Assembly (NCBI GenBank): GCA_902789425.1
Contig: CADANX010000002.1
Coordinates: 96,316 to 160,315, forward strand
Source of the DNA: an uncultured Erysipelotrichaceae bacterium
GTDB taxonomy: Bacteria; Bacillota_I; Bacilli_A; RF39; UBA660
Direction: 5' to 3'
DNA length: 64,000 nucleotides
Shown here: one piece after another, positions 13,601 through 18,000 of the stretch
Numbering within the stretch: the first letter of the stretch is position 1
Layout: each line of letters opens with the position of its first letter
Position numbers and translations under genes: made by a program
Notes under the pieces: generated by a model
The model's database searches: none
What the model was told of the DNA's origin: nothing
What the model saw: only the letters and a program-made list of their open reading frames with translations

Positions 13601-14995
13601 AACGTTCTTGAATATGAAGATGATAATCACAAAATTGCTGATGGTGAATACTTAATAAATTTATATCCAGTGTTTGAAGAAGCAGAATACACAATATTTT
13701 ATAGTAATAATGGTGGCTCTGGTTCTATGGCAAGAACAATATTTAAAGCTGCAGATGCTGAAAATGGAACACTTACAAAAAGTGCATTTACAAAAGCAGG
13801 TAATCGTTTTGCTGGATGGAGTATAAATTATGGCGTTAGTGATGTAGATTTTGCTGATGAAGAACCTTTGACTTCTTTAATGAATTATATGGACGAACAT
13901 TCAACTGATTTTCTATGGATATATGCGCAATATAGACCTAATACTTACACTGTTAAATTTTTAAAGAGTGATGAAGATGTACAAGGTGAGATGGAAGATC
14001 AATTATTTAATTATGGTGAATCTAAAAAACTTTCTAAGAATTTATATACAAAAGAAGGATATGACTTTGTTGGATGGGAAAATGGTAATATTACTTATAC
14101 CGATGAACAAGAAGTTAGTAATTTAGCAAGTGAAGATGGTGCTGTTGTAGAACTTACTTCTAAATTTGAAATAAAAAAATATAAAGTAATATTTATGAAT
14201 AATAATTTAGAATATGAGGTACAAAATGATGTTACTTATGGTAGTAATATAACACCACCAAGTACTAATCCGACACTGGATAATAAAGTTTTTGTTGGAT
14301 GGAAGCTAAATGGAGAAGATAATTTCTTTAATTTTAATGATAGAGTAGCAAATGATGATATAGCTGAAGAAATTGATGGTGAAAATGTCATTATACTTGT
14401 AAGTTATTACAGTAATATTGAACCTCCTATAATAACTACTGAACCAACAGAATGGACTAATGACAAAGTAAAAATAACTTTATCAAACGATAAAGGTTAT
14501 GATATGAAAATAAAAGTTGGTGATTCTTCATATACTGATTATTCTGAACCAGTTTATACTGAAGAAAATACTAGAGTAAAAGGTAAAAATGTTTCTGGTC
14601 TTGAAGAAAGTGGAGAAGCTATTAAAGATATAGATAATATAGATAAAATAGAACCTTCTATTAGTAATTTTGAATCAATAGGTAATTCAAGATATGTATC
14701 AGTTTCTCTTGATACATATGATGAAGATAGTGGTATTAATTCAGCAAAAATAATTTTAAACGTTGGTAGTGAAGAAGTAACATATTGTAATATTTCTACT
14801 GATAAAGAAGTTATTAATGATAAACAAACTGGTCCTTATACATATAGTTATTATTGTGATCTTGATGGTTTATCTGAAAGTACAACATATACTGGTAAAG
14901 TAGTATTAACAGATGTTGCTGGAAATGTTACTGAAGATGATATTGAAGTTACAACTTCTGATATAACTGATATAGTTGCTAGAATAATTAGTTAG
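10685..14995 (+). CDS. giant surface protein copy 1, N-terminal piece (signal anchor, Cna-B-like domain, multiple Listeria-Bacteroides-type repeats)
   Basis: 1436-aa ORF with an N-terminal TM (IIVSIILLVFMLSLLMI). Recurrent repeats of the form (Y/F)x(F/V)xGW(Y/F/K)...(I/V)YG(K) occur, e.g. ENYRFSGWYTDKNYTNKYNFNNLVTKDITVYGKL. Ends at a TAG that is in frame with the next ORF. Confidence 0.85.
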   Translation: MKDVLKKNKTIIVSIILLVFMLSLLMINNRINVKKYDGVVKVNEVKINTKGSSTEKEIIKKDDKEVVKEKETISSYSVLKYKINYKLETEGNTKRDALIYVNLKDEDKKYIVIKDINENNISSKMNGNTFEILVKNVETNINHSLEIEVTINNAPNGYKFSPEIVVKEKTSPETKKSVNPVEVKTTSLEGFIKTTDGKVAKNIEVKACIIDKDVCLNEKITYTDENGKYVFSNLDEGVYRIILPDGYIVDENEANVDTGSNELNIVYDQKGRFSASIKKYLEKVKIGDKNYDIAKSQKVAIPILSKNYIVADYVFDIENISESDGYVKVIRETIPEGFKVSDSEINKDWKKDGNYYVNDTLKNDILTSGETREVRIQIESTSKVGADVYKNKVEILGESYHTVRYVLDDELYKEFEIADGDKLENYKVEKENYRFSGWYTDKNYTNKYNFNNLVTKDITVYGKLINTVIPKRKITYMSDDTTIFDEREIDDGDCAEDIEGPVKEGYTFKYWKKDGEKYFDSTICKPVHDDIILYSEDEINKYDVNYYIPGSLNEESGNYIYTGVNTKYDDFSSKVDYGTNITNPGSKELKYYNFKGWFKEDTYDNEVEYPLEIKNDTNIYGKYQIKKYTVEFYNDRADDEPFNTTVFNATTIFTAPETEAPEGYKVKGWEYEDGSNVIFGDVAGETFADYSEDDVIKVYRVIGGITFRVRYLDYDNELIDENAYEDVELYDWPSKLYDYENMLHEDNYREGYRFKGFTFNGEDLYSTYYDGTHDYFSDLCIDKNDCVLDLIADYDDLSNMPVYVVFFDKMGTNGIETPKGELFDKTKIPAFTGVPGPWSGYSLPNRFTPIDWYEIVMENGSPVYGTDGYEHYDEPFDFDNTVINETTYVTAVYNPYKYILRFNKTDDSIQGEMTDQIAYMNTNDYSFSPYSTPNERLWVYPKNNEFVKPGHTFKGWSTTPGGEIEVYSGSSMNVLEYEDDNHKIADGEYLINLYPVFEEAEYTIFYSNNGGSGSMARTIFKAADAENGTLTKSAFTKAGNRFAGWSINYGVSDVDFADEEPLTSLMNYMDEHSTDFLWIYAQYRPNTYTVKFLKSDEDVQGEMEDQLFNYGESKKLSKNLYTKEGYDFVGWENGNITYTDEQEVSNLASEDGAVVELTSKFEIKKYKVIFMNNNLEYEVQNDVTYGSNITPPSTNPTLDNKVFVGWKLNGEDNFFNFNDRVANDDIAEEIDGENVIILVSYYSNIEPPIITTEPTEWTNDKVKITLSNDKGYDMKIKVGDSSYTDYSEPVYTEENTRVKGKNVSGLEESGEAIKDIDNIDKIEPSISNFESIGNSRYVSVSLDTYDEDSGINSAKIILNVGSEEVTYCNISTDKEVINDKQTGPYTYSYYCDLDGLSESTTYTGKVVLTDVAGNVTEDDIEVTTSDITDIVARIIS

Positions 14996-15025
14996 GTTTC
15001 TCAAACTAAAAAATGTACAATTCAA

Positions 15026-18000
15026 ATGGTTAAAAATACAAGAGAAACAAATATTATTAATAGTGATCAAAATATACTTCTTGATTTAAATGGTCATGAA
15101 ATAGATGGTGTAAGTGCAAATACTTTTGTTATTAATGGTAAATTACAAATAGTTGATCATAGTAACACTTATGATGAAAATGATCCTGAAACACTTACTA
15201 GTTATGAACCAATTGGTAAAATAATAAATAATCATATGATTACTACAAAAAATGAAAATAATGAAGATGTTCTTATTCGCGATGGTGTAGCATTATTAAA
15301 TAATTCTACAGGAACACTAATACTTGGTGAAAATGAGGTATCAGATGATGAACCAGGTTCAATTGTTTCAGCTGTAGAACCTGAAATTGTTTCTAATTAT
15401 GTTGGTATTGATACCAGCAAATCTAATAATTTTTCTTACTATGATGGACAAATTACTAGTGATAGAATTACTATATTAGGTTATGTTCCAAACAAACCTT
15501 ATCAATATAATGTTAATGTAATTTCAATAGAAGGTGGTGCTCAAGCTAATCTTGAATATATTTCAACATCTGTGGCAAAAGTAGTTAGAACAGGAATTTA
15601 TTACAATGATGTCGCATCAGCTAGAGATGCTACTTATAAAGGTACTTATGTTGCTACTTCTATTGATGAAGAAAATCTAATTAATAGAGTTGAATATGGA
15701 GAAGATTATTCTGATTTTTTAACTTTAGCTGAAATTGATGGGCAAACTGTTTTAACCGATTTAAAATCATCTAGGAGGTATTATAGAGGTGTAGTAGAAA
15801 TAGATTTAACTGATTATGAATATAATCAATTACTTACATTAACTTCTAGTTTACAAGGATCTAGTAATTCTAATGTTGCTTACGCTTCTATTGAGGAGGC
15901 TTCTAGTACATATACTAAGGATAAGTTAGTTGATAAAACAAGTAATTGTTTTATGAATTTAAAATCAGAAAATGAAAAAAAAGATTATTCTGTTTATTTG
16001 GAAAAAGGTAAAAAATATTATTTGTATTTATATCATTATATAAGTGATATAAACGATCAATTAATTATTTATGATATTAATTTAAAATCAGATACAGTAG
16101 TTTCTGATAGTCATTCTTTTGATGAATATTTTGAACGTAAAGATTCTTACTATTTTGTATGGAAAAATAGATCGTTAGTTAATAATAATCAAAATAGTGA
16201 TAGAACTACTGCAATTAGTACCTATAAGATAGATACTACTTCATATGATTCTCCAAAAGAATTAAAATTAAATCTAAGTATAAATGCAAATAAATCATCT
16301 TATGGATATGTTTTCTTAAACGAAAGTAGAAATCATTATTCTTCTGATACATCAAATAGTATTGTAACTCTTTCAGGATTTACTCCTGAAGCAGATTATA
16401 CTACTACTCTTCAACCAGGAAAGATTTATTATCTTCATTTTCAATATTTTAATTATAAAGATAATAGTACTAAAAATACTTTTAGTATTAATGATGTAAA
16501 AATTGATGATATTAGTTTATTTGGATATTCTGATTATGAAGATTCTAGTTATCATATAACTTATAATTCTCCAATATTAAATACTGAACTTGAAGGAACA
16601 GATTATAAAGCTGCTGATACAATAAAATTAATACAAAATGTAGTTTTATCCGAAACTTTAGAAATTGAAGATAATCATGATGTTATACTTGATTTAAATG
16701 GATATAATATGTCATCAGGTACTTCTGGTTCATCGTCTACATCTAATTATGTTATTGATAATAAAGGAAAATTATCTATTGTAGATGAAAAATATTCTGC
16801 TTTAGCTGATGAAGCAAGAATAAATTATGAACAAACTCAAAATCTTTATGATGAAGAATATAATGAAAAACTTGTTGCTTATAATAATAAGGTATCTGAA
16901 AAAAATACTGAATATGAACAAGAATATATAGAGGAAGTTGCCCAATATATGAATATTAGAGAGAATAAGTCAGTTACTGTTGATGACTATATTTCAAATA
17001 ATTTATATGCTTATTATGATAATTCATCATCTACAAGTGACAATTTGTGGGAAGATCTAAGTAATAATAATCATAACGCTACGATAGCTGGTGCTACTTA
17101 TAATGTAGATCATTTAAGTTTTGATGGAGAAGATGATTATTTAAATTTAGGAAAATTTGATTATGATACTAGATTTGTTTGGGATTTAATTATTGAACAC
17201 AGGGTTGATAATAAAGAACAGTATATTATATCTAATACTAAATCAGGAAGTGGAGTTTCTCTTAAAATAAGTGAAAATAATAAATTTATATTATCATCAG
17301 CTACTGAAGAAGATGAATATGATTATATAATTGAAAAGAATAAAAAATATAAAGTTACTTTAGTTTCTAATAATTCAAATGTTAAATTCTATATTAATAA
17401 TCAATATGCAGGTACTATTAGTACTTCTGCATCTAGTAATGGTAAATCAAATCTATTTATAGGCGTTGATGGTAATAATACTTTGCCAGGTACTCATTAT
17501 TTTGCTGGTAATATATATAGCGCTAAAATTTACTCTACAGATTTATCTGAAAAACAATTGCAAATAAATTTTGATAATGATGATTTAAAATATGATTTAA
17601 ATTATATACTAAGTGATTCGTTCAATGGTAATGTTTATAGTTCTACAGGAAATGAATATGTTTATTATTTATTTGATGGTAATCAAGATACTATTTATTC
17701 TACATCAAATGACGAAACAATTAGTTGGAGTAGATATAAAGAAAATACAATTAAATCTATTAAAATTTATGGTACAAATGATACTTCTAGGTATCCTACT
17801 CAAATGTCTTTTTATGGTTCAAAAGATGGTGATTCATATGTACAAATTTTGGATGATGTTTCATTAGAACCTAAAGGATTAGGTGAGTTTAATCAAATTA
17901 CAATTGATAACGATAATCTAAATTCTTATAGATTTTATAGATGGAACTTTAAAAATGAGAATGGTATATCAATAAGTGATATTAAACTTGAAGAATATAA

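Follow-up and report, generated by a model that had tools for sequence, protein, structure and literature searches.

An In-Frame TAG in a Giant Surface-Protein Gene of an Uncultured Bacilli Bacterium Is Most Probably the Seam of an Assembly Gap

Introduction

Among the closest described systems for the gene considered here are the Firmicutes surface proteins that contain the Listeria-Bacteroides repeat (Flg_new, PF09479 / TIGR02543). The first of two giant gene copies within a 64-kb stretch of DNA (the window, meaning the whole stretch that was analysed) from an uncultured gut/rumen Bacilli bacterium resembles these proteins in carrying six such repeats in its N-terminal third. It also has an N-terminal hydrophobic signal or anchor and a C-terminal L(R/Q)TGN motif (LRTGN in copy 1) that is followed by a hydrophobic stretch and a basic tail, as these proteins do. 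Copy 1 differs from them in being far larger (4,401 aa) and in having a C-terminal motif that is not the canonical LPXTG, and among the genes of the window no sortase was seen. In a scan with trigger factor, uncultured Bacilli MAGs (CAG:433 and RUG630 among them) reached at most 59% identity.

As assembled in the window, copy 1 is divided by an in-frame TAG. The comparisons described below indicate that this TAG is the junction left by a 78-base loss in this assembly, most probably of technical origin (probability of roughly 0.87), and that it is not a biological stop.

The Giant Gene and Its Paralog

Copy 1 is a single 13.2-kb gene, predicted from its sequence to encode a 4,401-residue cell-surface protein. 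When rebuilt from two other assemblies (L001 and L008), it forms one gene of 4,401 codons whose sole stop is terminal. The match to Flg_new has an E value of 6e-38 and a score of 129.2 bits (Pfam gathering cutoff, 27) and covers six stretches, while about 2,900 residues of the protein have no sequence match in Pfam, NCBIfam or PDB. The features of the two copies are as follows.

10685..23766, plus strand: giant gene copy 1 at its true extent (13,206 nt and 4,401 aa with the missing 78 and 46 nt counted)
15026..15028, plus strand: internal Met codon, not a start, in ...CTIQMVK...; the 20 nt upstream are CTAAAAAATGTACAATTCAA, with no Shine-Dalgarno sequence
25943..38992, plus strand: giant gene copy 2, the paralog, which the window has intact and which encodes 4,349 aa, including YDDTTLEEEDYINHPSLASALRDCET, the 25-residue counterpart of the segment missing from copy 1

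The window presents copy 1 as two ORFs, 10685-14995 and 15026-23578. An initial annotation had placed both in one frame on either side of a TAG at 14993-14995, and the sequence bears this out; no second in-frame TAG was seen in the 64-kb window, and reading through the codon gives ...VARIIS*VSQTKKCTIQMVKNTRE. That homology to the paralog runs straight through the stop, as the same annotation had claimed, is also borne out, since BLASTP of copy 1 against the paralog returned one HSP (aa 9-1678, 47% identity) which crosses the stop, and the paralog has 25 additional residues exactly there. The ATG at 15026 was said to have no Shine-Dalgarno sequence, and none resembling one precedes it, unlike nearly all ATG-start ORFs in the window. 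This ATG encodes an internal Met, conserved as part of a motif, C(T/E)IQMVK, that the paralog shares, and it lies within a continuous ORF in all other assemblies. The proposal of one gene interrupted in frame, with a downstream part that has no start of its own, was correct: the same-strain assemblies contain one 4,401-aa gene.

Copy 2 had appeared to be absent from X1 because of low depth beyond 25.8 kb. This result was not reproduced, and copy 2 was found there at 100% identity and ~70x. A Y..L..A...C....C.I motif similar to the proposed header recurs once in copy 2. The region of copy 1 labelled as a beta-helix had no match in Pfam at E<=5 or by phmmer against PDB, and an AlphaFold model of it had a pLDDT of 32 (a single-sequence prediction, unusable).

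The TAG Codon and the Missing Segment

Two features define the site of the interruption.

14894..14993, plus strand: 100-nt block identical in the window's strain and a sibling strain; the 78-nt gap begins at the end of the block
14993..14995, plus strand: in-frame TAG, the seam of a 78-nt gap between 14993 and 14994

The window was compared with three assemblies of the same strain, namely Logan ERR3275113, contig k141_562975 (66.9 kb) of ENA ERZ27280466, and scaffold_25 (321 kb) of ENA STEW19-1_SAMEA5383960. Wherever these cover the giant gene there are 0 substitutions, and 3/3 carry 78 nt that the window lacks. The insert lies between 14993 and 14994, and its full letters, identical from L001, L008 and L009, are TTGATGAGGTTGATATAGAAGATCCTGAAAACTATATTAATTATCCTACTTTAAAAGATGCATTAATTGGTTGTGATG; the flanks on both sides are base-for-base identical to the intact assemblies. 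Where the window has TAG, the same-strain assemblies have the codon TTT and then 25 more codons, the last of which is GAG. The TAG of the window consists of the T of TTT and the AG of GAG brought together across the gap (T/AG), and 26 codons are missing at the seam. Assemblies bearing the insert read ARIIS-FDEVDIEDPENYINYPTLKDALIGCDE-VSQTKKC, in which FDEVDIEDPENYINYPTLKDALIGCDE is homologous to the YDDTTLEEEDYINHPSLASALRDCET of the paralog. Because a single 78-nt gap yields both the stop and the missing codons, the two are one event.

Comparison of the orthologous codon in related strains, which the initial annotation had called for, was decisive. Sibling strains have TAT (Tyr) at the TAG site. 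The same strain has TTT there, together with the segment, and this refutes the earlier idea that one T-to-G change had turned a Tyr TAT into TAG. The lack of about 25 codons relative to the paralog was rightly observed, the number being 26, but it is not a feature separate from the stop since both belong to the same lesion. Sequencing error had been listed among the possible explanations; an error is indeed the preferred reading, but the fault is an assembly-level gap of tens of bases and not a base call.

The single gene is called at 4,401 aa in L001, L008 and L009; in L002 and L003, which represent sibling strains, its length is 4,437 aa. Sibling strains that carry the segment occur in at least six further datasets: L002, L003, and four runs from other studies (X4, X6, X8 and X9). 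No other assembly compared has a stop at the TAG site or a gap of this kind. The Logan contigs of X1 match the window over 9000-25697 with no mismatch at ~70x depth, but they have 78 and 46 extra letters (between 14993 and 14994 and at 23573, respectively); in X4 the extra letters at the seam number 79. Contig k141_562975 differs from the window, besides the missing segments, by a single SNP at 3040, and scaffold_25 has 0 substitutions over 13962-64000 (50 kb) and five segments that the window is missing. Such a spectrum, with no substitution and five missing segments, is not expected under natural divergence.

The 100-nt block is limited by two SNPs (L001 versus L002/L003), one at 14893 and the other at the base with which the missing segment begins, and these SNPs are likewise present in X4, X5, X6 and X8. 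There is no homopolymer or tandem-repeat tract and no point mutation at the TAG site. A repeat-mediated deletion was considered and rejected, as the 10-nt direct repeat TGATGAGGTT is spaced 72 nt and not 78 nt, and the joint has no microhomology. Excision of an adapter or contaminant was rejected as well, since what the window lacks is ordinary coding sequence.

Searches for the junction gave no match. In the run index the 60-nt junction query offered only two sampled 31-mers, both without a match, which is a weak negative. Neither the JGI metagenome contigs nor IMG/VR contained the junction 41-mer, although the intact-form control was missing from JGI as well, so JGI carries no information on this point. 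A 400-aa query spanning the junction had no match among proteins at E<=1e-10 and found no relative among genome contigs, megablast of 14000-16000 against a phage collection had no match, and a protein search found no truncated 1,436-aa product on record.

Companion Gaps and the Exporter Gene

The window is without four further segments of 46, 178, 46 and 35 nt, at 23573, 25767, 40996 and 41659. These gaps and the exporter gene that two of them break are as follows.

23573..23578, plus strand: second gap (46 nt), between 23573 and 23574, which creates the TAA at 23576-23578; the X1 contig has 46 extra letters here, and in L008 the segment is 9691-9736
25767..25768, plus strand: third gap (178 nt), within the remnant of a peptidase-C39 ABC-exporter gene
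40916..42808, plus strand: predicted peptide cleavage/export ABC transporter (C39 peptidase, ABC membrane and ATPase domains), broken by the fourth and fifth gaps
40996..40997, plus strand: fourth gap (46 nt), which falls 99 nt into a 206-nt exact repeat and causes a frameshift in the C39-ABC exporter gene
41659..41660, plus strand: fifth gap (35 nt), placed to within 2 nt, which falls 97-99 nt into a 177-nt exact repeat and causes a second frameshift in the exporter gene

The second gap shifts the frame of copy 1 and cuts the last 63 residues off the downstream ORF. The frame beyond the TAA encodes a C-terminus homologous to that of the paralog and continues to 23766; from its sequence, this C-terminus is a putative membrane anchor. 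The downstream frame of 8.5 kb had been described as fully open. It is open, but it is not intact to its true end, owing to the 46-nt gap at 23573 and the false TAA. In the intact assemblies the exporter is a protein of 657 aa (L011 6993-8966) with matches to PF03412, PF00664 and PF00005 and to TIGR01193 (E=4e-86).

The five gaps share a constant left margin. Measured from the strain SNP, contig branch or repeat start at which uniqueness ends, the margins are 100, 100, 100, 99 and 97-99 nt; the reference points include the SNP at 14893, the start of L010 at 23474, and the points where the exact repeats of 206 and 177 nt begin. At the second gap the reference point comes from an independent contig, L010, which begins 100 nt before the gap. 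The third gap lies 100 nt into a 376-nt stretch, all of which is exactly repeated in copy 2, and the X1 Logan contig has a loose end at 25767. Left margins that fall 97-100 nt past the end of uniqueness are a k-mer or scaffolding signature. The right margins vary (98, 61 and 45 nt to the end of the repeat for gaps 3-5), which counts against an artefact. In X1 the 206- and 177-nt repeats form separate Logan contigs with depths of 166 and 144, versus 70-80. Since this is about twofold, both genomic copies are complete in the X1 sample.

Origin of the Gaps

If the gaps are technical, as is most probable, the assembler or scaffolder would have let contigs end roughly 100 nt into non-unique sequence, which was either a genomic repeat or shared with a co-occurring sibling strain. 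The contig ends would then have been joined to the next contig by a mis-estimated overlap, with 35-178 nt dropped each time, and the window would contain five such faulty joins, all between 14.9 and 41.7 kb. The largest k that IDBA-UD uses by default is 100. The source study of these samples produced single-sample assemblies with IDBA-UD (PMC6785717). The cause is most probably the assembly software, possibly a de Bruijn assembler with k=100, such as IDBA-UD, combined with a scaffolding step, rather than a rare haplotype that really exists. A step after the graph (scaffolding or overlap trimming) must be assumed because a pure de Bruijn assembler cannot emit a junction k-mer for which there are no reads.

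A real deletion haplotype would require that a clone in some animal lost the 78 nt and the four other segments, inactivating the giant protein and the exporter, and that the assembly caught this clone. In its favour are the precise, in-frame nature of the 78-nt loss, the fact that inactivation commonly strikes large surface proteins, and the location of all the affected genes within one accessory cluster; furthermore, Logan contigs drop rare variants and show presence but not absence, so that a minor deletion variant would stay invisible. Such a haplotype is nevertheless unlikely. It would have acquired five deletions yet no substitution over 50 kb, and every deletion would start 97-100 nt past the point where uniqueness ends, which biology has no reason to respect. 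Two of the deletions start at most one base apart in two copies of an exact repeat and yet differ in length, and the junction was found in no other dataset searched. That a rumen Bacilli clone lost five short segments of the accessory cluster, disabling the surface protein and the C39-ABC exporter and leaving the paralog intact, is a shade more doubtful still. If true, it would point to a pressure, exerted for example by phages or the host, that selects against the surface structure.

Explanations that accept the TAG as a codon fare far worse. A nonsense mutation of TAT to TAG, in a gene that had independently come to be without the 25 codons, would agree with the Tyr (TAT) at the aligned position in the paralog and the sibling strains, but it can scarcely be credited when the same strain has TTT there and the A and G are the last bases of a GAG 78 nt downstream. 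Decoding of the TAG by read-through, a suppressor tRNA or reassignment, so that the short form would be made as one protein, might be suggested by an 8.5-kb downstream frame that is open and without a Shine-Dalgarno sequence or independent start. That frame is open because the gene is intact in reality, and suppression, an option raised by the initial annotation, is not needed and has no support: TAG is an ordinary terminator that ends 8/31 ORFs in the window, no tRNA gene was found in the window, and the second gap also throws the downstream ORF out of frame close to its end. The probability of decoding is accordingly minute. It is just as hard to maintain that there are two genes, with separately expressed N-terminal (1,436-aa) and C-terminal (2,850-aa) proteins; an ATG does occur 31 nt downstream of the TAG, but it has no Shine-Dalgarno sequence, and the ORF is continuous in all other assemblies.

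Implications

The biological import of the TAG is small because the gene is intact in nature. The finding matters for quality control, as a 27-kb section of the assembly contains at least five silent, N-free gaps of 35-178 nt, each of which creates a false pseudogene or split gene. Annotations, pseudogene counts and claims of read-through that derive from this genome need to be checked against independent assemblies, and the same probably applies to other genomes from the same pipeline. For this locus, the corrected model of copy 1 (4,401 aa, 10685-23766, with the putative membrane-anchoring C-terminus) and the intact exporter should be used.

Comparison with Known Systems

The interruption of copy 1 can be compared with the nonsense and frameshift pseudogenes of large surface proteins that arise by gene decay or phase variation. 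It is like them in that a giant adhesin-like gene is interrupted in frame and the downstream frame is open, but unlike them in that the interruption is limited to one assembly and is accompanied by companion gaps in a technical pattern. It also resembles the mis-joins and small deletions, due to errors of scaffolding or overlap trimming, that short-read metagenome assemblies contain at the boundaries of repeats and strain variants. The lesion is recurrent and is missing from independent assemblies of the same strain, each gap starts about one k-mer length (97-100 nt) into non-unique sequence, and a unitig-level assembly shows the repeats collapsed into units of twofold depth. A point of difference from these errors is that, of the five gaps, two are located not at intragenomic repeats but where strain variants meet.

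The TAG in the first giant gene

The TAG at 14993-14995 is present in the window, and the ORFs at 10685-14995 and 15026-23578 lie in one frame. Translation through the TAG gives ...DIVARIIS*VSQTKKCTIQMVKNTRE, and homology of this product to the 4,349-aa paralog (25943-38992) runs across the stop in a single BLASTP HSP (residues 9-1678, 47% identity). At the stop site the paralog carries 25 additional residues, YDDTTLEEEDYINHPSLASALRDCET. The ATG at 15026 is not preceded by a Shine-Dalgarno sequence (upstream, CTAAAAAATGTACAATTCAA); AGGAG- or GGTG-type sites lie ahead of nearly all ATG-start ORFs of the window. 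These features partly confirm the initial annotation; its proposal of a one-base cause and of an intact ORF downstream does not hold.

The stretch was found in public bovine gut metagenome runs, with 97% of sampled words in ERR3275113. A Logan contig from this run covering 14700-15300 has 78 letters between 14993 and 14994, at a depth of 70 and with zero mismatches, and a sibling-strain contig from a second run (X4) has 79 letters between 14994 and 14996. The two ends of the insert were seen in ERR3275113 and in four runs with sibling strains (X4, X6, X8, X9), using a reference that ended just 3' of the seam. DNA from independent assemblies was obtained via contigs encoding the exact neighbour proteins (9666-10598 and 23838-25616).

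Contigs from other assemblies
ENA ERZ27280466, k141_562975, 66.9 kb: L001 and L009
ENA ERZ28613037, STEW19-1_SAMEA5383960 scaffold_25, 321 kb: L008, L011 and L013
Logan ERR3275113: L005 and L012
Sibling strains: L002 and L003

In L001, L008 and L009, flanks identical to those of the window enclose 78 nt, TTGATGAGGTTGATATAGAAGATCCTGAAAACTATATTAATTATCCTACTTTAAAAGATGCATTAATTGGTTGTGATG, which are in frame and yield ARIIS-FDEVDIEDPENYINYPTLKDALIGCDE-VSQTKKC. The sibling strains have ARIIS-YDGVDIEDPENYINYPSLKDALIGCDE-VSQTKKC at the same site. Since the 78 nt with TTT...GAG sit between identical flanks elsewhere, the TAG is composed of the first base of TTT and the last two bases of GAG, and the stop and the lack of codons are a single lesion. 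The lack of 25 codons noted previously as a separate feature is genuine in the window, but 26 codons are absent and they belong to the same lesion as the stop. The proposed change of TAT to TAG fails because this codon is TTT in the same strain and the A and G of the window derive from 78 nt downstream.

Five segments absent from the window

Scaffold_25 has no substitutions relative to window positions 13962-64000, and k141_562975 differs from the window by one SNP only, at 3040. Compared with these same-strain assemblies, five segments are absent from the window; gaps 2-5 contain no N.

Segments absent from the window
Gap 1, between 14993 and 14994: 78 nt
Gap 2, between 23573 and 23574: 46 nt
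Gap 3, between 25767 and 25768: 178 nt
Gap 4, between 40996 and 40997: 46 nt
Gap 5, between 41659 and 41660: 35 nt

ERR3275113 Logan contigs also contain the 46 nt at 23573 and the beginning of the 178 nt at 25767. Gap 2 shifts the frame at the end of giant gene 1 and truncates its C-terminus; the TAA at 23576, which closes the downstream ORF formerly taken as intact, is made by this frameshift. The shifted frame 3' of gap 2 encodes ...GNIRTSYLTDTYTSNNILASSEAKMIVNLRTGNKYVRYGLIAGIIGLLLACFIYMKKMVRN*, and its homologue in the paralog is ...LIIGLQTGNKVINYGIIILSITILLKVLLTIRKRMN*. With the 78 and 46 nt restored, giant gene 1 has 13,206 nt and 4,401 codons with one terminal stop, and a gene of 4,401 aa is also called in L001, L008 and L009. 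Gaps 4 and 5 frameshift a peptide cleavage/export ABC transporter (657 aa in scaffold_25), leaving this C39-ABC exporter fragmented, with the ORF at 41978-42808 as the sole piece listed.

Origin of the gaps and alternative explanations

All five gaps start 97-100 nt past the point where uniqueness ends. At gap 1, the last SNP between the strain and its sibling (14893) is followed by 100 identical bases (14894-14993), and the gap starts at the following SNP. An independent k87 contig (L010) begins at 23474, 100 nt before gap 2, which marks a graph branch. Gaps 3-5 fall within two exact repeats, 206 and 177 nt long, which the C39 remnant that follows copy 1 shares with the C39-ABC gene that follows copy 2; the gaps start 100, 99 and 97-99 nt inside the repeat. 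In ERR3275113 each repeat forms a Logan contig of its own, of exactly 206 and 177 nt and with a depth of 166 and 144, respectively, versus 70-80 for the flanks; the two genomic copies are therefore complete in this run. The window has only parts of each repeat copy. Contigs ending one k-mer inside a repeat and then abutted or over-trimmed by the scaffolder would produce such gaps. The default largest k of IDBA-UD is 100, and a link between the gaps and this assembler is inferred. The samples are from the rumen study of Stewart et al. 2019, in which single-sample assemblies were made by IDBA-UD (PMC6785717).

Five deletions with zero substitutions and a constant k-mer-like offset are no mutational pattern, and the TAG split is almost certainly not a real biological feature. 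A rare haplotype that really carries the deletion is unlikely. Both sampled 31-mers of the seam (n=2 only) were absent from the run index, and no record of the 1,436-aa truncated product was found. The junction 41-mer was absent from IMG/VR and from JGI contigs, where the intact form is absent as well, so that the latter result has no weight. The possibility that the window is right and the other assemblies wrong was rejected, as the added segments restore homology to the paralog and the C-terminal and exporter reading frames, and are found in divergent strains of several studies as well as in assemblies from four different pipelines.

Read-through or reassignment of TAG, suggested by the open frame downstream, was also rejected. 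TAG terminates eight of the 31 ORFs of at least 150 aa (TAA 23, TGA 0), no tRNA gene was found in the window and no in-frame TAG was seen elsewhere in it; the frame 3' of the TAG is open because the gene is intact in reality. A two-gene arrangement with its own start at ATG 15026 is rejected as well, since this ATG, without a Shine-Dalgarno sequence, is an internal Met of a conserved C(T/E)IQMVK motif. The initial interpretation is partly supported: it holds for a single gene and for an error, and fails for a point change and for read-through. The main use of the finding is as a warning about this assembly.

Other genes of the window

The window is a chromosome segment of an uncultured Bacilli lineage, whose trigger factor shares no more than 59% identity with MAGs such as Clostridium sp. 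CAG:433 and RUG630. Housekeeping genes include recD2, cmk, alaS, mltG, greA, thyA and tig. TGA seems barely used, as a stop or sense codon, in this genome of about 22% G+C, because it ends none of the 31 ORFs and TGG codes for Trp 91 times. The alanyl-tRNA synthetase (49514-51280, 588 aa) comprises the catalytic core and second additional domain without the long C-terminal extension, and its gene runs 14 nt into the beginning of the YceG/MltG gene (51267-52343). The short gene model appears real because it is called in all other assemblies. Trigger factor is one gene of 419 aa in scaffold_25 and is called in two pieces (191 and 164 aa) at 14675-15941 of a sibling scaffold (L014, STEW19-1_SAMEA5383886 scaffold_215), which may be another assembly or strain lesion. 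Located 5' of the giant genes (6001-9613) are genes for a protein with a VTC domain, a DUF4956 protein and a CotH-kinase-like protein of 734 aa that has chitobiase/Fn3-associated and lamin-tail domains, adjoining a teichoic-acid/polysaccharide synthesis cluster (331-5952).

The giant proteins and their cluster

Three genes are duplicated in tandem in the cluster; they encode a giant surface protein, a protein of 59x aa and a C39-ABC exporter, and of the first exporter only a 376-nt remnant is left.

Exporter sequences
Window 25668-25865: remnant
Window 40916-41740: parts of the exporter after giant gene 2
L008 11831-12206: remnant
L011 6975-7180 and 7686-7862: parts of the intact exporter

The 206- and 177-nt blocks of the remnant match two stretches of the intact exporter after giant gene 2 at 100% identity and meet at a 7-nt overlap. 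To judge from this arrangement, the real genome seems to have undergone a recent duplication and then lost about 505 nt from within the copy. The 592- and 588-aa paralogous proteins (23838-25616 and 39061-40827) follow their respective giant genes and may be their partners; each is hydrophobic near the N-terminus and lacks Pfam and NCBIfam matches.

At its N-terminus the giant protein has a hydrophobic anchor; it also contains six Listeria-Bacteroides (Flg_new) repeats, about 2,900 residues that matched no family and, at the C-terminus, an L(R/Q)TGN-hydrophobic-basic tail. The 26 residues absent from the window make up a 'cap'-like strand-helix-strand element that includes two Cys; the beta-helix attribution was not confirmed by the AlphaFold single-sequence model (pLDDT 32). 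Both giant proteins close with L(R/Q)TGN, a hydrophobic stretch of about 20 residues and a basic tail (23660-23766, in the shifted frame, and 38890-38992), and no sortase gene was seen within the window. These C-termini resemble a sortase-type sorting signal, but L(R/Q)TGN is not the canonical LPXTG.
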